A stretch of 64,000 bases of DNA from Candidatus Sumerlaeaceae bacterium. GTDB lineage: Bacteria > Sumerlaeota > Sumerlaeia > Sumerlaeales > Sumerlaeaceae. Where the stretch lies: positions 28,154 to 92,153 of the forward strand of contig JBPCLP010000008.1 in the NCBI GenBank assembly GCA_051003195.1. The letters are read 5' to 3'. Below the pieces are notes generated by a model. That model saw only the letters and a list, made by a program, of their open reading frames with translations. It did no database searches and was not told where the DNA came from. Each line of letters opens with the position of its first letter. Position 1 is the stretch's first letter. Below, in pieces: positions 14,600 to 64,000 of the stretch. The translations under genes and the position numbers were made by a program.

Positions 14600-14607
14600 A
14601 TAAGAGT

Positions 14608-14640
14608 CGGCACACCAGAGAACTGGTGTGCCGAATTTGT
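14608..14640. terminator. bidirectional rho-independent-type terminator hairpin between convergent genes
   Basis: CGGCACACCA-gagaac-TGGTGTGCCG followed by AATTTGT. Shares the GTGTGCCGAA core of the REP-like element. Confidence 0.6.
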
Positions 14641-18865: not shown

Positions 18866-19726
18866 ATGAGTGACGATATTCTTCTCGGTGCGCACATGAG
18901 CACGGCGGGCGGTATGCCGCGTGCGATTGAACGCGGCGAATCCATTGGCTGCACGGCAATCCAGGTTTTTGTTAAAGGCAACACGCGCTGGCAGTGGCCG
19001 CCACTGAAGCCCGAGGACATAAAGCAGTTTCGCGAGGGAATGGAGCGGAAGAGTATACGTTCAGTAATCGCGCACGCTATTTACCTCGTGAATCTCTGTT
19101 CCGACAAGCCCGAGTTTGTACGAAAGTCGATCGACGATATGATCGATGAAGTGAACCGGTGCGACGTGCTTGGCATCCCGGGCGTGGTGATGCATCCTGG
19201 TGCACATTGCGGTGCGGGTTGCGAAGCCGGTATTGAAGCAATTGCCCACGGTCTCAACGAGGTGTTTGCCTCGACACCAAAGGGCACAGCGCGTATCCTG
19301 CTGGAGACAACGGCAGGACAGGGCTCATGTCTTGGGAATCAATTCGAAGAGCTGGCGGCGATTATCGATGGCGTGGAACGCAAAGATCGGCTGGGCGTTT
19401 GCCTGGACACGTGCCACGTATTTGCAGCCGGTTTTGACGTGCGGACGCGCGAAGGCTACGACCTGATGTGGAAGGACTTTGACAGAATCGTCGGTCGCAA
19501 AATGTTGATGGCGATTCACCTGAACGACAGCAAGCAGCCGCTGGGATCACGAAAGGACCGTCACGAGCACATCGGCAAGGGCCAACTGGGGCTGGAGCCG
19601 TTCAGGTTCATTATGAACGACCCGAAACTGAAGAAAATACCCAAGGTCCTCGAAACCGACAAAGATGACAAGATGACGGAAGACCAGGAGAACATGGCGA
19701 CGCTTCGGTCGCTGCTGGCGAAATGA
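18866..19726 (+). CDS. nfo: endonuclease IV (AP endonuclease family 2)
   Basis: 286 aa with Nfo metal-binding blocks (GAHMSTAGG, HAIYLVNL, VVMHPG, LETTAGQG, LDTCH, AIHLNDS). Confidence 0.9.
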   Translation: MSDDILLGAHMSTAGGMPRAIERGESIGCTAIQVFVKGNTRWQWPPLKPEDIKQFREGMERKSIRSVIAHAIYLVNLCSDKPEFVRKSIDDMIDEVNRCDVLGIPGVVMHPGAHCGAGCEAGIEAIAHGLNEVFASTPKGTARILLETTAGQGSCLGNQFEELAAIIDGVERKDRLGVCLDTCHVFAAGFDVRTREGYDLMWKDFDRIVGRKMLMAIHLNDSKQPLGSRKDRHEHIGKGQLGLEPFRFIMNDPKLKKIPKVLETDKDDKMTEDQENMATLRSLLAK

Positions 19727-21708
19727 ACTTTCGCTGGTACGCGGCCCGTTTGCGCGCCATGCCGCTGCCTGAGTATTTTTATCGAGCGAAGCAGTCGGCG
19801 GCGCTTAAGAAGCGCGCTGCAGTGGCGGGCCGCACGCCAGCTCTAAGGTTCTTTAGTACGTTGGCGGAGCTGCCCGAAATTACGGAGCCGCGGCAAGTGC
19901 GATTTTTCGATGTCGTGCTGTTGTATGACGGAACTGAAGAGATCGACTGGCACCGCGATTACAGCACCGGCAAACGCTCACCGCGTCGATTCTATGGACG
20001 TATCGATTATCGCGACAGCGCACGTATAGGCGACGCGAAATATATCTGGGAACTGAATCGCCACCAGTTCATGGTGCCATGGGCGCTTCACTACGCGGCG
20101 ACCGGAGACGAACAGGATGTTGCCGCCATTGTGCATCTGCTTCTCAACTGGATAGCGGCTAATCCGAGGTACGTTGGGATTAACTGGGCGAGTTCGCTGG
20201 AACTCGCGTTGCGGCTCCTATCGTGGGGAATCGTATTCGACCTGTGCCGGCATTCCACTGTGCTTAACAGCATTCGGCCCATGGTGGAACGCTCGGTCAC
20301 GGAGCAGGCCGGTTACATTCACGATACGCTGTCGCTCTATTCCTCCGCGAACAATCACCTGGTGGGGGAGCTGGTTGGGTTGGTAGCGGCAGGCGTTTTC
20401 TTCCCGAACGCGCCCAGTGTACGGCAGTACGCGGAGTTTGCGCGCGCAGAGCTCCTCCGGCAGGCGCATCTTCAAAATCACGCAGACGGCGTAAACCGCG
20501 AACAGGCAGTTTATTACCACTATTACACGCTGGAATATCTTACTACCGCCATGGCGCTTTTCGAGCGGGCGGGGTGGAACTTTCCGGATGAGACAGCGGC
20601 GCTCGTGCGCAAGATGCTGGAGTTCATAGATGCGGTCGTAGACGATGAGGGCGTAGCGCCGGAGATTGGTGATCGCGATGATGGCTCAGTAACGGGATTG
20701 AATCTCGGGACCAACGTTGGATTGTACGAGTCGCTGCTTTGGACAGGATGGCGCTTGTTTGGTGAGCAGTCGTTTGCCGACCACGCAGCAGGCGTCGCAC
20801 GAGGGCGTGGTGATGAACCATCCGTAGATCCGCGCACGGTGTACTGGCATGGATTGCCGGAAAATGACTCCATGGAAAGGTGGGCGGAGAGTGAACCTGC
20901 GGCCACGGCAACTGCGAGGATTTTTCAACAAGGTGGCTATGCCGTATTTGGATTGCCTGCAACAGAATCGGTGGATGCTTTGCGCATTCTTTTTAGAGCG
21001 GGTCCTTTTGGCTATCCGAGGATTGCGGCGCACTCGCATTGCGATCAGCTTTCCCTGTGTGCGAAGCTCGGCGAGATGGAACTGCTGACAGACAGCGGAA
21101 CGTATTGCTATCATTCGAATGAGCGCTGGCGCCGCTATTTCAAAGGCACGACTGCGCACAATACGGTGCGAGTGGATGAAATGGACCAGGCCGAATACGG
21201 AGGTCCATTTCTCTGGGTGACGCATGCAGACGCCGAGTTACAGGAGTTGCAGAAACGTGAGTTTGGTTTTCGAATCGCGGGGGTGCATTCCGGATACCGA
21301 CGGCTTGCGGAACCTGTCGAGCACAGCCGAACCATCGAAGTTTCGAGTGGAGAACGGAAGCTGCTTGTTCGTGACACTCTCGGCAGCGGTGAGGCGCACA
21401 AATACGAACTGATCTGGAACTTTGGTCCGGGGATCGAACCGGAGTGGAGCATCGATGAGGAGCAGATGCCAAATACGGAAATCACGTACCGCAGAGCGGA
21501 GTGGCTGCTGCGAACCGGCCAAAATATGGTTGCGCGATTTTCGGTTAATTCCGAGCATCCGTTCCAGGTGCAGCTTTTTCACGGCGATGAGGTGGAGCCG
21601 GCGGGCTGGTATTCGCGTAAGTTTGGCGAACGCGTTCCTATTTACCAGCTGCGGATTACCGTGACTGCGGGATGGTGGTCGGTGGATAGCGCTTTAACAA
21701 TTCACTGA
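19723..21708 (+). CDS. heparinase II/III-like family protein
   Basis: 661 aa. The NWASSLELALRLLSW and NNHLVGELVGL regions are typical of the heparinase II/III alpha-toroid. ATG overlaps the nfo stop (ATGA). Confidence 0.65.
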   Translation: MNFRWYAARLRAMPLPEYFYRAKQSAALKKRAAVAGRTPALRFFSTLAELPEITEPRQVRFFDVVLLYDGTEEIDWHRDYSTGKRSPRRFYGRIDYRDSARIGDAKYIWELNRHQFMVPWALHYAATGDEQDVAAIVHLLLNWIAANPRYVGINWASSLELALRLLSWGIVFDLCRHSTVLNSIRPMVERSVTEQAGYIHDTLSLYSSANNHLVGELVGLVAAGVFFPNAPSVRQYAEFARAELLRQAHLQNHADGVNREQAVYYHYYTLEYLTTAMALFERAGWNFPDETAALVRKMLEFIDAVVDDEGVAPEIGDRDDGSVTGLNLGTNVGLYESLLWTGWRLFGEQSFADHAAGVARGRGDEPSVDPRTVYWHGLPENDSMERWAESEPAATATARIFQQGGYAVFGLPATESVDALRILFRAGPFGYPRIAAHSHCDQLSLCAKLGEMELLTDSGTYCYHSNERWRRYFKGTTAHNTVRVDEMDQAEYGGPFLWVTHADAELQELQKREFGFRIAGVHSGYRRLAEPVEHSRTIEVSSGERKLLVRDTLGSGEAHKYELIWNFGPGIEPEWSIDEEQMPNTEITYRRAEWLLRTGQNMVARFSVNSEHPFQVQLFHGDEVEPAGWYSRKFGERVPIYQLRITVTAGWWSVDSALTIH

Positions 21709-25279: not shown

Positions 25280-26186
25280 AGGTGGAGACCGGTTCCAGGT
25301 TTTCCAGCTTATAGACGACCAGGTCACCGGATGTAATACGGCTCTGGGTCAGCAGGTGGGCAACTTCCTGCAACTGGCCCAGGGCCGTTTCTGGTTTAGA
25401 GGGGTCAATGCCGTTCCTGGACGTGACGGTCGCAAAGTGCGTGTGGCTTTGCACTCCCGAGGTTGCTTTATCATCGGGATTGACGTAGAACACCGCCTGA
25501 GTCGCAGAGGTCTCGTCTGCCGCCGAGCGTAGAACTAAACCGAAGAAAAGCGCATCCACGTCGCGCAATACTGCCTTCGGATGAAAGTAATCTGCACGTT
25601 TCGGGCCGAGAATCGGTTCGCCATAGGCCGGGGCTTTACGTATGGCCGAGGTTTCGAGGGCGGTGAAACGGCCTACGCCGGCCACACCCAGTAGTTTGCC
25701 GTGACGCGCCGCCAGCTCCGTAAAGACCTGTTCCATGGTTTGGGTGCTTTCGGTTAACCGGTAGCGGGCGATGGGCAAAGCCTGAGCATCGACGCCCGCC
25801 ACGAAGGCTCCCCAGCCGCTTGCGCTTTCTACCCCAGTCGCCGTTCGCGTGCAATATCCGCATGCAGCATCGAGAGACTTGATAAAGAGCCTGCCGTTTA
25901 CAATGAGACCTTCACCCTGTCGCGCTGCGTCTGGCTGGAGTGCTCCGCCGCCCAAAGCGTACAGGAAGGCATTTTCGGGGATCTTCTGAAATCGGGGGCC
26001 TGTGCACTCCCCATCCAGTACCGTGGTAACCCGGCCCAGTACGCGCCCGTGCGCGACTCCATTCAGTACCTCGGTTTGCTCAAGCCCGGCAGAAACAGTA
26101 CCTCCGAGCGTAACCATTGCAACTGCAGCTAATATCTTCATCAATCCAACTACTCCGTTCGAATTGCGCGGCATTTTAGTGCGCAA
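25257..26186 (-). CDS. secreted hypothetical protein (possibly phosphodiester glycosidase/DUF2233-like); likely start at the internal Met at 26141
   Basis: Signal peptide MKILAAVAMVTLGGTVSA. About 295 aa mature protein. Confidence 0.5.
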   Translation of the reverse strand: MRTKMPRNSNGVVGLMKILAAVAMVTLGGTVSAGLEQTEVLNGVAHGRVLGRVTTVLDGECTGPRFQKIPENAFLYALGGGALQPDAARQGEGLIVNGRLFIKSLDAACGYCTRTATGVESASGWGAFVAGVDAQALPIARYRLTESTQTMEQVFTELAARHGKLLGVAGVGRFTALETSAIRKAPAYGEPILGPKRADYFHPKAVLRDVDALFFGLVLRSAADETSATQAVFYVNPDDKATSGVQSHTHFATVTSRNGIDPSKPETALGQLQEVAHLLTQSRITSGDLVVYKLENLEPVSTSNLKERE

Positions 26187-32915: not shown

Positions 32916-33765
32916 CAAGCCGTCGCGTGCTTTAGCCGTTGTTGTTTTATGGTGCCTGGTCGCTGGGTTGTGTGCAGCGACTTACGGTGACTCGTCCACT
33001 ACGAGAGTCGTTTCGCTTGTGCCTGGGCTTACAGAAACATGTTTCGCGATAGGCGCGGGACCCCAGGTGGTCGGTGTGAGCGACTACTGCGCATACCCTG
33101 CCGAAGCCAGGACTCGTCCGCGCGTGGGCGGACTCAGCAATCCTCGGCTCGAGCAACTGCTTTTGCTGCGGCCAACGGTCATTCTGCTCTATCGCTCACA
33201 GGCTGACTTTGCGCATAAATTGCGCATCTTGAAAATAGATTGCCGGCTGTTCGCGTTGGATCGACTTTCGGATATCTACGAGGCTGCTGAGCAACTGGGC
33301 GGCATTACTGGAAAGCGAGCCGAGGCGCATGTGCTGGTGCGATCGATGCGCGAGCAATTTGAAGCGATGCACGCACGTACCAGTGAAACCGCTGCTGTGC
33401 GGGCGGTGGTACTAGTCAGCCGGGATCCTGGAGACCTGCGGAATCTGTTCCAGGCAGGGCCAAAGAACTTTCTTGGTGAACTGATGAACCTTGCGGGCGG
33501 TTCTCACGCAATTGCTACAGATGCTGCGATTACAAAGGAACAACTGATCCTCGGGAATCCACAGGTCATCATTGACCTGTCGGGCGGTGAAAGCGCATCC
33601 ACGGCGGAAGCAAAAGAGGCCGCATTGCGCGTATGGGCGCAATTACCGACAATAGATGCTGTGAAGAACCATCACGTCTACTATCCCGCGGCTGCCCATG
33701 CGTTGGTTCCGGGACCGTACCTGGTTGAAGCAGCAAAAGAATTCGAGCGCATGCTGCACCGCTAG
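32890..33765 (+). CDS. periplasmic substrate-binding protein, TroA/BtuF-like (Fe3+-siderophore/cobalamin type ABC PBP)
   Basis: Signal peptide (ALAVVVLWCLVAGLCAA). VVSLVPGLTETCFAIGAGPQVVGVSDYC block typical of cluster A-2 binding proteins. Start overlaps the nagA 3' end by 26 nt. Confidence 0.7.
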   Translation: MAFWFIKNNKPSRALAVVVLWCLVAGLCAATYGDSSTTRVVSLVPGLTETCFAIGAGPQVVGVSDYCAYPAEARTRPRVGGLSNPRLEQLLLLRPTVILLYRSQADFAHKLRILKIDCRLFALDRLSDIYEAAEQLGGITGKRAEAHVLVRSMREQFEAMHARTSETAAVRAVVLVSRDPGDLRNLFQAGPKNFLGELMNLAGGSHAIATDAAITKEQLILGNPQVIIDLSGGESASTAEAKEAALRVWAQLPTIDAVKNHHVYYPAAAHALVPGPYLVEAAKEFERMLHR

Positions 33766-56833: not shown

Positions 56834-56911
56834 TCGGGGCGTAGCGTAGCCCGGTTATCGCGCCTGCCTTGGGAGCAGGAGGTCGCAGGTTCGAATCCTG
56901 CCGCCCCGACC
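56834..56911 (+). tRNA. tRNA-Pro (anticodon TGG)
   Basis: Cloverleaf read by hand: acceptor CGGGGCG/CGCCCCG, anticodon stem CCTGC/GCAGG with loop CTTGGGA (U33-UGG-G37), T-loop GGTTCGAATCC, encoded CCA. Confidence 0.85.
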
Positions 56912-57039: not shown

Positions 57040-58452
57040 TTAATCCTTCGTGTGCAGGTAATGCATTCCCCAGCCGAGTTCCTCATTTCGGGTGCTACCG
57101 GTGCTGAAAATGCTGTCACCTCCGCCTAATGCATAGATTCTTTCGTTCACAACACAGGCTGCGAAGCTATGGCGAACCGTTGCAAGTGCCGCACCCTGGG
57201 TCCAGGTGTCGCTCGCTGGATCATAGACGTAGGTGTCCTGGGATATTTCGCCACCCGAACTGCCACCAAACGCATAGACTTTTCCACCCATGCCCACGAC
57301 ACCTAAGTTGTGCCTGGCAATCGGCATGGGGGACTTCGACGTCCACGTGTTGCTGCCGGGATCGTATTCCTCATTGGCTCCGGTATAAGTGGGCGACGCT
57401 CCAATCAACCCGCCGATGACGTAGATTTTTCCATTCACGGTGGCCGCGCCTGCTCCCTGCCGCACCGCCAGCATCGGTGCCAGCGGCGTCCAACTGTTGG
57501 ACACAGGGCTATAGGCTTCCGTGCTGCCCAGCGAGTTAAGAGCGCTGTCACTACCGCCAAATACGTAGATCTTGCCGTCGGAAACAGCCGCTGCGGCGAA
57601 GCTCCTGCCGACCGACATTGCCTGGGCGGGCGCCCATGCGTTTGTGCCGGGGTTGTACACCTGGTTCGTAGCGACAGCGACACCGGCAGATCGCCCGCCA
57701 ATGGCATATATCAGCCCATCCACCTGGGCACAACACAACCCCACACGGTTGTCTGGTGTGGCCAGCGAGCCCCAGCTGCTGGCAGCCGGGTTGAAGACGA
57801 GGTTATAGGGCGTGCTGCCGACGGCGCCAATGGCATACACTTTTCCAGCGGCCGATGCTGCCGCAAGTTGGGACATCGCAACCGGCATGGGAGGCCGCGT
57901 TTGCCAGCTGCCGAAAATGGCGCCGGTACGCGAAAAGCCGGCTGGCGCCGTCGCGGTGTTTCCCACGATCGCATAGCCGGCGGGAGTGCCATTCAGCGCG
58001 CTGTCTGCCACGTCGGAGTTGAGCGCCCGCACCGCAAACGGTACCGACTCCAGGCGTGTGGGCGGCAGTACGACATTTTGGGGAAGGTTGGCGTCAACGG
58101 CGACCTGCAGAAACATGGGCTCGTTGGTTACAAAGGCGGCGTCAGTCAACGGGCCCCCGAACAGAACGGTGCCCGTGCCCACGGTATGGTTCACCACGCC
58201 ATTACTCACGTTTAAAGCGGCTTGCTCGCCAAACACCTGGGTACCGGGCGATGGACCCACGCCCGCCGCACCGCGCCAGATGGAAAAGAAAAGCGTATGG
58301 GTGCTCTCCAGCGCACTGCCACCAGCACCCGTCAGCTTTGCCTGGTAATTGATACGCACCGGCTGCGTTGCTGAAGCGCTGACGCAAAACATTATGAAAC
58401 ACGCTGCGAGACATTGTACCGACGCTCGGCCGCCATTTCCGTGAATTCCCAT
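57040..58452 (-). CDS. secreted Kelch-repeat beta-propeller protein
   Basis: Signal peptide. Repeated Kelch motifs (GKVYAIGA, GLIYAIGGRS, GKIYVFGG, GKIYVIGG, GKVYAFGG, ERIYALGG) with W/Y spacing. Confidence 0.8.
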   Translation of the reverse strand: MGIHGNGGRASVQCLAACFIMFCVSASATQPVRINYQAKLTGAGGSALESTHTLFFSIWRGAAGVGPSPGTQVFGEQAALNVSNGVVNHTVGTGTVLFGGPLTDAAFVTNEPMFLQVAVDANLPQNVVLPPTRLESVPFAVRALNSDVADSALNGTPAGYAIVGNTATAPAGFSRTGAIFGSWQTRPPMPVAMSQLAAASAAGKVYAIGAVGSTPYNLVFNPAASSWGSLATPDNRVGLCCAQVDGLIYAIGGRSAGVAVATNQVYNPGTNAWAPAQAMSVGRSFAAAAVSDGKIYVFGGSDSALNSLGSTEAYSPVSNSWTPLAPMLAVRQGAGAATVNGKIYVIGGLIGASPTYTGANEEYDPGSNTWTSKSPMPIARHNLGVVGMGGKVYAFGGSSGGEISQDTYVYDPASDTWTQGAALATVRHSFAACVVNERIYALGGGDSIFSTGSTRNEELGWGMHYLHTKD

Positions 58453-58663
58453 GAATCGCCCCCGGCTCTGATTTTAAAAATTATAAAATCGGCGGCATTC
58501 CAGTGTCAATCACGCAGAGGCGCGATCATGGGGCAGCGTCGAGCTAGGTTAAGATCGGGCGACAAATACCTGCTGGCATCAGGATCCTGGACTGGATTCT
58601 TCTCCATGTAGATCCCCTCGAAGTCCGGGGGGTAGAGGTGTCAGGGAAAAAGCTGGCATGCTG

Positions 58664-58802
58664 AAAGCGGTACTAAAGTACGCGCATTCGCCCACAGCCG
58701 ATGTTCAGGCCAAATCTCCGCACCAGCTGTAAGCCCTCCCCGGATTGTAAACAAACCATAGCGCGCAGCGCTTTGGAGTGCGCGTACTTCAGTACCGCTT
58801 TC
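58664..58802. repeat. 24-25 bp imperfect inverted repeat pair flanking an 88-bp spacer
   Basis: Left arm GAAAGCGGTACTAAAGTACGCGCAT, right arm TGCGCGTACTTCAGTACCGCTTTC. 23 of 24 positions complementary. Confidence 0.75.
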
Positions 58803-59496
58803 CACTAATCTTCAGATAAACGTCCATGCCGTCGCTGCAGACGGAGAGCATATACCGCATCCCCGGAAACAAACCCGGTGCCCTGATTGTCGCGGTGAAG
58901 AACATGGTGCGGACAACCGGCGATGACCACCCTTGCTCGACGTTCCATGGTATGGGACTTCATTTTCGTTGTCATGGACTAATGAAGTTCTGGGCACGAC
59001 CCATGACACGTCGTTATAGACCGGGACCAGGCCCATACGGTGCAGCGCATGAGCGAGCATGGCAGTAGCCTTCGAGGACGGCGAGGGGAGCTTCGCGCTC
59101 GGCGCCGTAGAAGAAGGTTCGGGCGCGGCTTACCGCCGGGACTGATGAGTTGCCAAATCCTTGCAGATACTCATGCCCTGCCTGCTCACCAGCTATTTTA
59201 TACAGAGCGTCGAGCATCTGGTGATAGCGTCTGTGGCCGACAAACTGAAATGGGTAGCGAAGTTGCTGTGTCGGGCCAGGATTAGGTTTTGAGGTGACAG
59301 GTTATGCATTGATTCCAGCTGCATGCATCCTGTAGCTAATTTGGTGTGGCTGGATAGGCAAGAGTTGTTGTTCCGGGTTACCCGTACATCGTCCTCTGAT
59401 CGTGCCCACTTATTCTGACCGCCGAATCGCTCCGCTTTAGGCAAAGCCAAAGCAAGCTTTCGCACCAAAGCGGCTACGCCGCCGGGGTTGTTCGGA

Positions 59497-59610
59497 CGGG
59501 GTGCAGGGTTCACGTCCCGGGTTCAGGGTTCGCGGTTCACAGTTAGGATTGAGGGTGCAGGATGTGGGGTCGGGGTTCAGGACTCGGGTTCGAACCAGGG
59601 CTCACGGTGA
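59497..59610. repeat. degenerate GGGTTCA-type heptamer tandem array (G-run rich)
   Basis: GGGTGCAGGGTTCACGTCCCGGGTTCAGGGTTCGCGGTTCACAG...GGGGTCGGGGTTCAGGACTCGGGTTCGAACCAGGG, about 35-45 bp upstream of the ATG at 59644. Confidence 0.7.
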
Positions 59611-59643
59611 CCATAATCTAATCGACAATGGGATCATTCCGAT

Positions 59644-61431
59644 TTGAATCATCGCATGTTCTTACAGCAAAGACTCCCGTACCTCGTCATTGGCATGGTC
59701 GCCCTATGCGCGATCGCGCAGGCGGAGTGGCGCAATGCACTTGTGTCGCTGGCCGAGCCGTCAGACCCGGTCACCCTGGTCAGCCGCGCAAAACCTGCCG
59801 GGCATATTCAGTTGCCGCCCCGGCCCACGCCGCAGGAACGAAAAGCCGCTGCCGATCTCCAGCATTGGATCGCGCAGATTACCAGTGCTACGCTGCCCAT
59901 TAAGAAATCCGCTCGCGGTGCGGTTGTCAGCATCCGCACCGATGACGCATGTAACGACGAAGAATACCGGATCCAGGTGGATGGCCGTCGCATCCTGTTA
60001 TACGGCGGACGCACGCGCGGTGTTGTAAACGCGGTGTACGCGTTGCTGGAAGAAGACATGGGGTGCCGCTTCTACACGAATGAGTCCATCCGTTTGCCTA
60101 CCACCAGTACCCTGGTTGCCAGGCCGGTTCCGCGGCGGTATGGTCCGCGCCTTAAATTGCGCGATCCGTTTTACTATTGTGCGTTCGATCCTGTGTGGTC
60201 GCTGCGCAACCGCACCAACGCACCCGATGCGAAGGTACCGGAGGCGCACGGCGGGCACGTGGACTATGACAACATGTTCGTCCACACAATGGACAAGCTC
60301 GTCTCGGCAACGGTCTATTTCAAGAAGCACCCCGAATACTTTGCGCTTCAGCCGGACGGATCGCGCAATCCCATTGCCCTGTGCGCCACCGAGCCGAAAG
60401 TTGCGAAGATCGCGATCAAAGCGGTGCGCGACATTCTTCGCCGCAACCCCAATACCGAAATCATCAGCGTCTCGAAGAACGACACCACGGTCGTCTGCCA
60501 TTGCGAGCGCTGCAAAAAGCTACGCGATGCCGAAGGTTCGGACATCGCTAATCAACTGGTGCTGGTGAACAAAATCGCGGACGCCATCGCCGCCGATTAT
60601 CCGCGGGTTACCATCGACACGCTTGCGTACCTTGAAACCATCCAGGTCCCGAAAACGGTGCGCCCGCGAAAGAATGTGGCCATCCGCCTGTGTAACGATG
60701 CGGTCGGTGCCTGGACTTACCCTTTCCGACCCGCCGAGCAGTGCGACATCGCGAAGCTCGCATCTGCCTGGGCAGCGGTGCACCATCGCATCTACATCTG
60801 GGACTATAACGTTAACTTCAGTCATTACCTTGCGCCGATGCCCAACCTCGATATCATGGCGGCAAACATACGCTTCTGGATCCGCAACAACGCCGAAGGC
60901 GTGATGTTGCAGGGAGGCTACCAGGGCGCTGCCGAGCAGGATCACATGAAGTGCTGGGTGACTGCCAAACTCATGTGGGACGCTTCATGGGATGAGAAGG
61001 AACTTGTGCACGATTTCATCTGGGGACACTACGCCAGCGCTGCACCGGCAATGCAGGAATACGATGACCTGCTGCAGCAGATGCGCGTGGAACATAAGCC
61101 GACGATGGACAAGCCCGCGCAGGGAATCCGGTATCCGATGGACGCGCCGTTCATCACGCGCGATTTCATCACCAGCGCATCGGCGTTGTTCTCACGGGCC
61201 AGGGAACTGGCTGGCGGTGACACGGCGTTGCTGCAACGTATCGAGCGCGCCGAACTTCCGATTCTCTACGTCCAGTGTGAGCGTGGAGCGGAGTTTACAG
61301 GACCGGAATACGCGGCTGTGGTCGATCGGTTCGCACTCGTGGCCCGGCGCGAAAAAGTAAACACGACCCGCGAAGGACCTACAGACCTTGATGCGAAGAT
61401 CGCCGGATACCACGCCAAAGTCAGGAAGTAG
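59644..61431 (+). CDS. secreted DUF4838-like protein (GH20-like N-terminal region, CxCxxC motif)
   Basis: Signal peptide (LVIGMVALCAIAQA). VVCHCERCKK motif and overall size and layout as in DUF4838 proteins. Confidence 0.6.
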   Translation: MNHRMFLQQRLPYLVIGMVALCAIAQAEWRNALVSLAEPSDPVTLVSRAKPAGHIQLPPRPTPQERKAAADLQHWIAQITSATLPIKKSARGAVVSIRTDDACNDEEYRIQVDGRRILLYGGRTRGVVNAVYALLEEDMGCRFYTNESIRLPTTSTLVARPVPRRYGPRLKLRDPFYYCAFDPVWSLRNRTNAPDAKVPEAHGGHVDYDNMFVHTMDKLVSATVYFKKHPEYFALQPDGSRNPIALCATEPKVAKIAIKAVRDILRRNPNTEIISVSKNDTTVVCHCERCKKLRDAEGSDIANQLVLVNKIADAIAADYPRVTIDTLAYLETIQVPKTVRPRKNVAIRLCNDAVGAWTYPFRPAEQCDIAKLASAWAAVHHRIYIWDYNVNFSHYLAPMPNLDIMAANIRFWIRNNAEGVMLQGGYQGAAEQDHMKCWVTAKLMWDASWDEKELVHDFIWGHYASAAPAMQEYDDLLQQMRVEHKPTMDKPAQGIRYPMDAPFITRDFITSASALFSRARELAGGDTALLQRIERAELPILYVQCERGAEFTGPEYAAVVDRFALVARREKVNTTREGPTDLDAKIAGYHAKVRK

Positions 61432-61445
61432 ATGAGCGTGCCTCC

Positions 61446-61475
61446 TTAATCAAAACTAATCAAAACTAATCAAAC
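61446..61475. repeat. 9-bp tandem repeat (TAATCAAAAC) x3.3
   Basis: CTTAATCAAAACTAATCAAAACTAATCAAACA directly after the stop of the DUF4838-like gene. AATCAAACAGG recurs at 61508. Confidence 0.8.
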
Positions 61476-62547
61476 ATTGGCGTCGCTCGTTGGCATTTCA
61501 CGCTTTAAATCAAACAGGCCGATGGGGTAATTTCGCCCTTTGATTTCCGTAATGTTCAGATCATGTCGCCTCCAGTTCTTCTTTTGTTTTTTCGTCGGAG
61601 GCGTGTGAGGCGAGTGCGGATTGCGGAGTACAAGCCGGACTCGGAATCGTCGGCGGTAAGGCACGGCGGGTTGCGTTGTCAGCGTCATCATAATGTCTCC
61701 TTGGTGCTTTCAAGTTCAAGTTGGTAATTTCGCCACTTGAATAGCGGTAATCTTTCTGTAAGGTTTGCTCGTGCCGGCCCAACTCCGCCGCTTCAGTTTC
61801 ATCAGCAAACCAACAGCCTCCGCGAAACCTTCATGGCTGTTGCCTTCGGTTATTTGCTGGAACCCGTCAACCGCAGGCGAGACGCCTGCGCCACGAGGGT
61901 CGGCGGGGTCGGGGAATTGCGTTTGTTTTATCATTATGAGGACCTGTGTAGCACAGGCTTTTGGCTAATACAATTCCCGCACGACCCCTTAGAGACCCTT
62001 CGGGCACCTAAAAGTGCACAGGTTTCGGCTACAGTCGCCCGGCAGCCGCGGCCATGAAAAGAATCTGATCGGGAGCTGACCCAAAATCTTCCGCTGTTTC
62101 CCGGCTGTGTATTAACAAATTAACACATGGCCTGTCCCCTTGTTTCTACCTCGCCGCGGCAGTCATGAACCTCAAGCGCCTGGCGGCGCTGATCACCGCG
62201 CCTGGGGTGCCCAAAAAGCTGCACCAAGCCGCGTTTCCGCTCCTTCAGCGCCTGTTAAGCATATCATTGGAGCCCGATGTGAGTTCTTCGAAACGAAGCC
62301 ACTTCGGCCTTTGCTTCAGATGAACAAGGAACCGGGCCGTATGGGAAAGGGGTTCTTCAACAGCCCCACCGTCCCCGAATTAGCTCAATTAAACATGCCA
62401 TTGGCCGGGAAGTTGCACTATATAATATATATATTCTAGAGTCTACCGGTCCTTATTGATTAGTCATTGGACACCCGGAGGCGACTGGTAAACTAAACCC
62501 ACCGACCAGGTAAGGCGTACCGCGACGGGGTAATTGAGGAACGAATT

Positions 62548-64000
62548 ATGAGACGCTATTTTGCACAGGCCTTTAAAATGGCTCCAATAAACCCCCGAAT
62601 GATGGCGCTTCGGGCATTGGAGCGCATGCTGCTCAGCGTGCTTGTGGTACTTTGCACCAACCTTGCCATGGCTGCTTCATCGGGCTCGGTAGGGTATCTT
62701 GCCGACCAGCAGGTTGATGGCGTCGATGAGCTGTGGAGGGTAGACGCAAAGACTGGACTCCTGAGCAAGGTGAACGCGCCCCTGGTCGCTGGGGGGGATG
62801 TTCTTACCGGTTTGATCAGCCGTAAGGGTTCGGCCATCCTCTATCGTGCGGACCAGGATGTGAACGACATTTACGAGCTCTACTACAAAGACCTGAAGAC
62901 GGGCACTGTAAGCAAACTAAACCCGACGCTGGTGCCCGATGGAGATGTGGATTCTGGTTTCCAGATGGACTCAAAGGCTGCGAGCGTAGTCTACCGGGCA
63001 GACCAGGACGAGACCAGCGTCAGCGAGCTTTACCGGGTGGACCTGAAGACGCGTGTCGTCACTCAATTGAATCCCCCCCTGGCAGTAGGCAGGGATGTCT
63101 CTGATGGTTTTCAGGTTGATCCAAAGGGCACAAGCGTGGCGTACCGGGCCGATCAGGACACGGACGATGTGAAGGAACTCTATCGCGTCGTCTTGAAAAC
63201 TGGCGTGGTGACCAAGCTCAATCCACCTCTTGTATCAGGTGGTAACGTGCGAAATCTGCTGTTCGACTCAAAGGGTGCGAGCATAGTGTACAGGGCCGAC
63301 CAGGATGTGGACGGTGTCTCGGAACTTTACCGAGTAGACCTGAAGACACTTATCGTCAGGAAACTGAATTCGCCGCTGGTCGCCGGTGGAAACGTCTCGG
63401 CTGATTTCCAGATTGATCCAAAAGGTGCAAGCGTGGTGTACAGGGCCGACCAGGATGTAGACGAAGTCTTTGAACTTTATCGGTCCGACCTGAAGACCGG
63501 TGTCATCACAAAAGTGAACCCGCCGCTAATTTCAGGTGGTGACGTCCGGAGTTTCGCCATCGATCCCAAGGGGACAAGTGTCGTGTACAGGGCCGACCAA
63601 AGGTTCGCTGGCGTCATCGAAGTCTTCCGGTTGGACCTGAAGACCGGTCTTGTTGTCAGATTGAGCGAACCAATGCCTCCCGGCGGCGACGTGGTGAGCT
63701 TTCAGATCGACTCGAAGGGTGCGAGTGTAGTTTACGTAGCCGACCAGGACTCGGATGACAGGAATGAACTTTACCGCGCTGACCTGAAAACTGGTCTGGT
63801 AACCGAGCTGAATGCACAGTTGGTAACAGGCGGAAATGTCGTGGATTTCCAGATAGATCCAGGTGGAGCGAGCATCGTGTACAGGGCCGACCAGGACGTG
63901 AACGAAGTTTTCGAACTTTACCGCGTGGACATAAAAACGCGACTGGTGATGAAGCTGAATCAGCCCCTTGTGTTGAACGGTGATGTGCTGGCTTTCGGGG
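62548..64000 (+). CDS. secreted tandem-repeat beta-propeller protein (at least nine 48-aa PD40/TolB-like repeats); 3' end outside the window
   Basis: My own translation. RBS GAGGA sits 7 nt before the ATG. N-terminal signal/anchor (MMALRALERMLLSVLVVLCTNLAMAAS). Then ELYRVDLKTGvVTKLNPPLVsGGDVxxFQIDPKGASVVYRADQDVDEV repeated with a 144-nt period to the window end. Absent from the supplied ORF track, which lists only ORFs with an in-window stop. Confidence 0.85.
   Translation, partial: MRRYFAQAFKMAPINPRMMALRALERMLLSVLVVLCTNLAMAASSGSVGYLADQQVDGVDELWRVDAKTGLLSKVNAPLVAGGDVLTGLISRKGSAILYRADQDVNDIYELYYKDLKTGTVSKLNPTLVPDGDVDSGFQMDSKAASVVYRADQDETSVSELYRVDLKTRVVTQLNPPLAVGRDVSDGFQVDPKGTSVAYRADQDTDDVKELYRVVLKTGVVTKLNPPLVSGGNVRNLLFDSKGASIVYRADQDVDGVSELYRVDLKTLIVRKLNSPLVAGGNVSADFQIDPKGASVVYRADQDVDEVFELYRSDLKTGVITKVNPPLISGGDVRSFAIDPKGTSVVYRADQRFAGVIEVFRLDLKTGLVVRLSEPMPPGGDVVSFQIDSKGASVVYVADQDSDDRNELYRADLKTGLVTELNAQLVTGGNVVDFQIDPGGASIVYRADQDVNEVFELYRVDIKTRLVMKLNQPLVLNGDVLAFG

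Follow-up and report, generated by a model that had tools for sequence, protein, structure and literature searches.

The 1116-nt spacer at positions 61432–62547 is probably, at a moderate level of confidence, non-coding DNA that is specific to the lineage and occupies a variable chromosomal segment, with a gene of the same orientation on either side; it is read here as three parts, not as a discrete new element. It separates a DUF4838 gene (59656–61431, plus strand; Pfam E 4e-85) from a PD40/TolB-like beta-propeller gene (from 62548, plus strand; Pfam) within the 64-kb window, i.e., the whole stretch of DNA that was analyzed. Non-coding DNA ahead of a repeat-protein gene, as the original prediction had it, agrees with the evidence. 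The left part (61432 to ~61890) would be untranslated DNA following the DUF4838 gene, starting with a tandem repeat, and the two small open reading frames annotated there (ORF-A and ORF-B) would most likely be chance ORFs. In the center, a GC-rich hairpin (61890–62005) would stop read-through from the DUF4838 gene and insulate the next transcription unit. The right part (~62100–62547) would control expression of the beta-propeller gene, with AT-rich palindromic tracts as a possible upstream element or operator, a putative sigma-70-like promoter at 62468–62494, a ~47-nt leader and GAGGAA as ribosome-binding site. Past loss or gain of genes may have left the extra length behind. Coding signal and known RNA and protein families are absent; the structures, repeats and unusual length of the spacer are real. 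Overall, the spacer is an ordinary, unconserved and unusually long intergenic region, without any feature that would assign it to a new class. A long gap of this kind in a poorly sampled phylum (Sumerlaeota) may look feature-rich and yet resist interpretation without relatives or transcripts.

In related loci totaling ~515 kb, gaps between genes had a median of 113 nt, making the spacer about ten times as long, and two of 348 gaps were at least 1 kb. All remaining gaps in the window were at most 480 nt, except for a second long gap of 1.2 kb (58453–59655) on the opposite side of the DUF4838 gene; both >1-kb gaps of the window thus flank one gene. This second gap contained a large hairpin (z −6.1) and the TTGACA-18-TATAAT promoter of a divergent Kelch gene. 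The GC content of the spacer was 52.2% vs. 56.9% for the whole window, so its earlier description as AT-richer holds, although the value is normal for intergenic DNA here (mean 53.1%).

Codon log-odds were about zero in all six frames over the spacer, vs. 0.2–0.47 in the flanking genes. Per-codon scores of all spacer ORFs ranged from −0.25 to 0.10, and those of accepted genes, small ones included, from 0.19 to 0.33. Six ORFs of at least 67 aa, in assorted frames, occurred within the 1.1 kb; the length of ORF-A and ORF-B is therefore no evidence for either. Pseudogene traces were absent in Pfam searches (ORFs and six-frame translations), in tblastn against plasmids and in tblastn against 57 related loci; the suggestion of a degraded gene accordingly found no remnant in any frame.

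The right part contained two AT-rich palindromic sites. A quasi-palindrome at 62106–62129 (TGTGT-ATTAAC-AA-ATTAAC-ACA), judged from its sequence, may be an operator-like site. An imperfect palindrome, ACTATATAATATATATATTCTAGAGT, was found at 62417–62442 by AT content and a promoter-pattern scan, bearing out the TATA-rich tract previously reported at 62418–62442. This tract was among the two most AT-rich 20-mers of the window (19/20). On its plus strand the sigma-70 match was just 8/12, and its minus strand carried a promoter-like TAGACT-17-TATAGT (9/12). The best plus-strand candidate for a sigma-70-like promoter was TGGACA-15-TGgTAAACT at 62468–62494, which matched 9/12 positions and had an extended −10 TG; its spacer of 15 nt is short against the usual criterion of 16–18 nt. 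The candidate lies ~55 nt ahead of the beta-propeller ATG, and the AT palindrome ~60–85 nt upstream of the predicted transcription start. Because the best promoter-like site is this close to the ATG, a leader of ~47 nt is likelier than a very long one, which speaks against the long 5′ UTR proposed earlier. The region ends (62529–62550, plus strand) with GGTAAT(T), a GAGGAA Shine-Dalgarno sequence (62536–62541) and the ATG of the beta-propeller gene (62548).

The window's other most AT-rich tract held the TTGACA-18-TATAAT before the Kelch gene, a perfect match, indicating that canonical sigma-70 signals, set within AT-rich tracts, are in use in this organism. Hairpin terminators were found after other genes. 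The spacer shares with ordinary intergenic control regions a GC-rich hairpin and T-run downstream of a gene, and AT-rich tracts, −35/−10-like hexamers and GAGGAA before the next gene. It differs from them in its length relative to the median gap, in the distance of its hairpin from the stop codon (460 nt) and in an imperfect promoter match.

The hairpin in the center is an imperfect palindrome of 115 nt (61890–62005), with a small hairpin inside ~26 outer base pairs, each of them Watson-Crick. Folded as RNA it reached −51.9 kcal/mol (z −4.09; 0/200 shuffles as good) and as DNA a z of −2.9. A z of −4 or below occurred in one of 176 control windows, and comparable structure at 1–2% of control positions. 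Since both strands fold about equally and with Watson-Crick pairs only, the hairpin could be a DNA-level palindrome. The enclosed apical hairpin, CCTGTG-TAG-CACAGG followed by CTTTTGG (61943–61967, plus strand), is terminator-like, with a stem of 6 bp (four GC) at 61943–61957, 510 nt past the DUF4838 stop. The small hairpin noted earlier at 61941–61964 is thus present and forms the apex of the 115-nt structure. Its large distance from the DUF4838 stop is far for a terminator and counts against a terminator role for the hairpin. Terminator-like sites in the spacer numbered five vs. 2.2 ± 1.5 in shuffles, which is no clear enrichment.

MITE/REP-like elements also share a ~115-nt intergenic hairpin with long, nearly perfect, strand-symmetric arms, and the neighboring gap has a further hairpin, 140 nt long and with arms of 27 nt. 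Unlike such elements, each hairpin is single-copy in the 64 kb, the two are mutually unrelated and target-site duplication is not visible. Within the window, a MITE/REP-type repeat was therefore rejected: the inverted arms are there, but the element is single-copy and the sequence shows no flanking duplication.

In the left part, two minus-strand hypothetical proteins are annotated by NCBI: ORF-A (61470–61691; MGI8905279.1, 73 aa) and ORF-B (61716–61934; MGI8905280.1, 72 aa). Both calls are backed by ab initio prediction only. The original prediction had called the region gene-free, which stands as regards any convincing coding signal but overlooks these two annotations; its statement that no ORF here has a plausible protein agrees with the near-zero codon scores and with the searches below. 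Read as genes, ORF-B followed by ORF-A would make up an operon on the minus strand for two orphan small proteins, transcribed from the promoter-like site at 62445–62417; it would converge with the DUF4838 gene and diverge from the beta-propeller gene, and the true spacers would be 38, 24 and 613 nt. We consider this operon unlikely. The two ORFs are in tandem on the same strand, 24 nt apart, which is ordinary gene spacing, and AAGGAG precedes the ATG of ORF-A by 5 nt. A Shine-Dalgarno sequence with a start and an ORF of at least 50 aa, however, turns up spuriously about eight times in the rest of the window. ORF-B lacks a Shine-Dalgarno sequence, and the apical region of the −52 kcal/mol hairpin encloses the start codon of this ORF. 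The minus-strand hexamers in the AT palindrome would supply a promoter, but one that implies a 5′ UTR of ~475 nt.

Codon usage was compatible with either origin. The ORF frame was the best or near-best of six in most windows of 61420–61800, with low values. Scores of 0.03 (ORF-A) and 0.06 (ORF-B) are still within what real genes show, falling at the 3rd–4th percentile of real 72-codon windows; they are also in the top 14–18% of shadow ORFs, and the real:shadow density ratio was 0.5–0.8. Database searches spoke against the operon. ORF-A had no homolog beyond itself in 1.84 billion representative proteins, and each ORF formed a singleton cluster. Neither matched any entry in Pfam, PHROG, NCBIfam, PADLOC or PDB, and viral-contig scans with both returned nothing. 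Three ORFs within the spacer were also looked up in public assemblies and had zero records. The ORF-A product is rich in Arg, Pro, Thr and Lys (pI 11.5). AlphaFold2 modeled it as nearly all coil (pLDDT 55) and ORF-B at low confidence (pLDDT 63, pTM 0.25); being single-sequence models, these are weak evidence.

Perfect palindromes, one after another, take up most of the coding length of ORF-B; four lie in or overlap it (arms 61762/61804, 61811/61835, 61873/61883, and 61905/61971). The 12-mer GGTAATTTCGCC, common to both ORFs, is read in a different frame in each and is therefore not conserved at the protein level. A type I toxin-antitoxin system was rejected on its peptide, as such a locus pairs an antisense RNA with a small hydrophobic membrane peptide and both ORFs are hydrophilic (GRAVY −1.04 for ORF-A and −0.43 for ORF-B). 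The two resemble orphan ab initio ORFs in long MAG gaps in their size, lack of homologs and domains, and atypical codon usage, and differ from them in the strong Shine-Dalgarno sequence of ORF-A. We doubt that ORF-A and ORF-B are genes, and translation of either one is improbable. Pipeline-called orphan ORFs in such gaps merit skepticism.

The DUF4838 protein was identical to MGI8905278.1, encoded on a 233-kb contig of a Candidatus Sumerlaeaceae bacterium MAG, ORF-A and ORF-B being the next two accessions. The nearest homologs of the flanking proteins were 66% (DUF4838) and 46% (beta-propeller) identical. DUF4838 homologs occurred chiefly in Verrucomicrobiota and Planctomycetota MAGs, and in 56 related loci no neighbors of DUF4838 were shared, with no synteny and no alignable DNA. 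Because the homologs do not exceed 66% identity and the neighbors are never shared, the segment after the tRNA-Pro, which lies 4.5 kb upstream, looks variable and possibly acquired.

These observations also bear on a reading to which we give a poor chance, namely that the spacer is a functionless scar where a gene or mobile element has been lost and eroded within an island by the tRNA-Pro, or is partly an assembly artifact in which the tandem repeat was the site of a wrong join. In its favor are the missing synteny, the nearby tRNA, a large hairpin in each gap, and two >1-kb gaps flanking a gene whose nearest homologs belong to another phylum (Verrucomicrobiota) though the MAG is labeled Sumerlaeaceae. 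Against a scar, similarity to protein families and to plasmid-borne genes was absent in every frame, the two gaps showed no sequence similarity to each other, and the hairpin arm had no further copy in the window. Blastn against phages and plasmids gave no similarity to the spacer. The 3′ end of the tRNA-Pro was not repeated downstream, even at three mismatches, and no integrase or transposase was found among the genes upstream of the spacer. A tRNA-linked integration or att site was rejected on these grounds, and the integration scar suggested at the outset gained no positive evidence. Integron attC sites were likewise rejected, their core sites missing in the sequence. A replication origin was rejected as well: TTWTNCACA boxes numbered zero in the spacer and five in the window vs. 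2.9 expected, there was no GC-skew switch at window scale, and dnaA and dnaN were not found.

As to an artifact, independent Logan contigs from the same strain were 100% identical to the window and broke in the tRNA-Pro, at the arm of the inverted repeat in the 1.2-kb gap, and at 61469 inside the tandem repeat. The latter two breaks could point to a wrong join. However, a 30-nt overlap of Logan contigs supports the continuity of the MAG at the 1.2-kb gap, and, from a reading of the sequence, a simple copy-number variant would be expected to cause a break at a place other than 61469.

Two copies of a bipartite repeat were found by local alignment and pattern count, both on the plus strand and 197 nt apart: GGTAATTTCGCC-N10-CGTAAT at 61526–61553 and GGTAATTTCGCC-N11-GGTAAT at 61723–61751. 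The duplicated sequence reported before at 61524 and 61724 is this 12-mer, with its positions 1–2 nt off. The 12-mer forms the core of a ~32-nt repeat whose local alignment score was 27 vs. 17.7 ± 2.2 in shuffles (0/300 shuffles as high). Tandem duplication of a whole ~200-nt unit was rejected, as its global alignment was matched by 239/500 shuffles and the 32-nt core alone was significant. The pattern GGTAAT-N16/17-GTAAT occurred at just these two places in the window vs. 0.02 expected, the pattern having been defined after the repeat was seen. GGTAAT itself occurred four times on the plus strand of the spacer vs. 0.38 expected and zero times on the minus strand, and the GGTAAT(T) at 62529, 13 nt before the beta-propeller ATG, makes a fifth site.

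Judged by its pattern, the GGTAAT repeat could be a protein-binding site. The boxes presumably resemble ECF −35/−10 elements, a resemblance that serves as a lead only. ECF-sigma promoters and direct-repeat response-regulator sites are likewise bipartite, as is the spacer pattern with its two occurrences on one strand; the spacer differs in having no cognate regulator gene nearby and no further copies in the window. The bipartite, strand-specific repeat is not accounted for by the preferred reading as non-coding DNA. It is very improbable that the GGTAAT sites are promoters or binding sites of an unknown regulator, whose targets would be either a small RNA specific to the lineage or the two orphan proteins, together with the beta-propeller gene, or more broadly that the DUF4838 gene and two kilobase-long, hairpin-bearing non-coding arms form a recently acquired cassette of an undescribed kind.

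There is a slim chance that the spacer encodes at least one lineage-specific non-coding RNA, for example a transcript running from the GGTAAT-N16-(C)GTAAT boxes, as ECF-sigma-type promoters, to the hairpin at 61943–61957, or a structured 115-nt hairpin RNA. The two same-strand boxes with a terminator-like tip downstream of both, the z of the hairpin alone, and the structured interval 61740–62010 (z −2.8 for the plus and −3.6 for the minus strand) would fit such an RNA. The promoter-to-terminator interval itself (61756–61968) had a z of −0.5, i.e., no unusual structure, and was rejected as a small RNA candidate; control positions, moreover, were as structured 1–2% of the time, and no ECF sigma gene (Sigma70_r2/r4) was present among the genes of the window. 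Every stem consists of Watson-Crick pairs only and is symmetric between strands, which gives no reason to favor RNA over DNA. Rfam returned the tRNA-Pro alone for the whole window at gathering level, one chance match outside the spacer for 58300–62700 at E ≤ 5, and zero matches for 61400–62600 at E ≤ 10. The spacer contained no tRNA and no homologous sequence was found. The regulatory RNA proposed earlier thus gained no support from Rfam. If the small ORFs or a small RNA were real, they would be lineage-specific genes beside secreted repeat proteins, which would be modest news.

The tandem repeat at the left end (61447–61474, plus strand) consisted of 2.8 copies of TAATCAAAAC (TRF: 100% matches, score 56), the third copy being TAATCAAAC. 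The earlier report of a 9-bp repeat in three copies was right about its presence but not about its period, which is 10 bp, or its copy number. The repeat sits in the 38 nt that separate the DUF4838 stop from the ORF-A stop, its A4 tracts are phased at 10 bp, and it probably arose via replication slippage. A further copy of the repeat sequence had been reported at 61508, and AATCAAACAGG was indeed found at 61508–61518. AATCAAA occurred four times directly and once inverted within 61448–61545, and six times on the plus strand and twice on the minus strand in the whole 64 kb. In pattern scans of viral contigs the match counts were judged compatible with chance; one unrelated AT-rich viral contig bears the same simple 10-mer repeat.

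The closest homologs of the DUF4838 gene (59656-61431), which belongs to a MAG labelled Sumerlaeaceae, were no more than 66% identical. Most of the MAGs encoding these homologs carried a Verrucomicrobiota label, and some were labelled Planctomycetota or Armatimonadota. Neighboring genes common to the DUF4838 gene and its homologs were found in none of the 56 related loci compared. Together, these distant cross-phylum homologs and the lack of common neighbors across the 56 loci suggest that the DUF4838 gene was acquired horizontally or, alternatively, that the contig was mis-binned.

Independently assembled Logan contigs from sample SRR33880242 (loci L001 and L068) were 100% identical to the window. 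Ends of these contigs fell at three places: position 56883, within tRNA-Pro; positions 58772-58801, in the right arm of an inverted repeat of the 58453-59655 gap, where contigs shared an exact 30-nt overlap; and position 61469, within the repeat of TAATCAAAAC. Such ends resemble branch points of an assembly graph; if so, the sequence at each of them would be repeated or variable within the SRR33880242 sample.

On the side opposite the 61432-62547 spacer, the DUF4838 gene was flanked by another non-coding gap of 1.2 kb (58453-59655). This gap held no CDS in the NCBI annotation, as the accessions of the Kelch and DUF4838 proteins are consecutive. Three features occurred within it: a minus-strand TTGACA-18-TATAAT without mismatches (58509-58480), preceding the Kelch ATG; a hairpin of 140 nt whose arms are 27 nt long (58663-58802; z = -6.1); and an array of degenerate (GGGTTCA)n heptads at 59499-59561.

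At the start of the 61432-62547 spacer, the DUF4838 stop formed part of a TAGATG, placing a start codon directly after the stop (61429-61449). This start opened a mini-ORF of five codons (MSVPP) followed by a stop. The plus strand across the same positions, GCCTCCTTAA, resembled an anti-Shine-Dalgarno sequence. Both this resemblance and the mini-ORF are probably due to chance. Six-frame segments of the spacer, joined by runs of X into a query of 1850 aa, had no match in the homologous-protein search. Two of these segments were exact members of the searched protein collection and were missed; concatenated queries therefore gave false negatives in that collection.

The beta-propeller gene downstream (62548-64000) contained internal tandem repeats of 150 nt with 76% matches. 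Among the 120 matches listed for its protein, the top homolog was only 46% identical and none was an identical record, although neighbors from the same MAG were in the database. In the NCBI record, this gene may be missing, incomplete or flagged as a pseudogene; alternatively, short identical fragments could rank below the 120 matches listed.

Elsewhere in the window, a control scan using 121-nt windows found strong structure at 25281-25401 (z = -5.2), where two convergent genes overlap at their ends, at 33531-33651 (z = -3.8), and at 19671-19791 (z = -3.4). Between two convergent genes, a perfect 12-bp hairpin (14607-14634) fitted the pattern of a terminator on either strand and is likely a bidirectional terminator.
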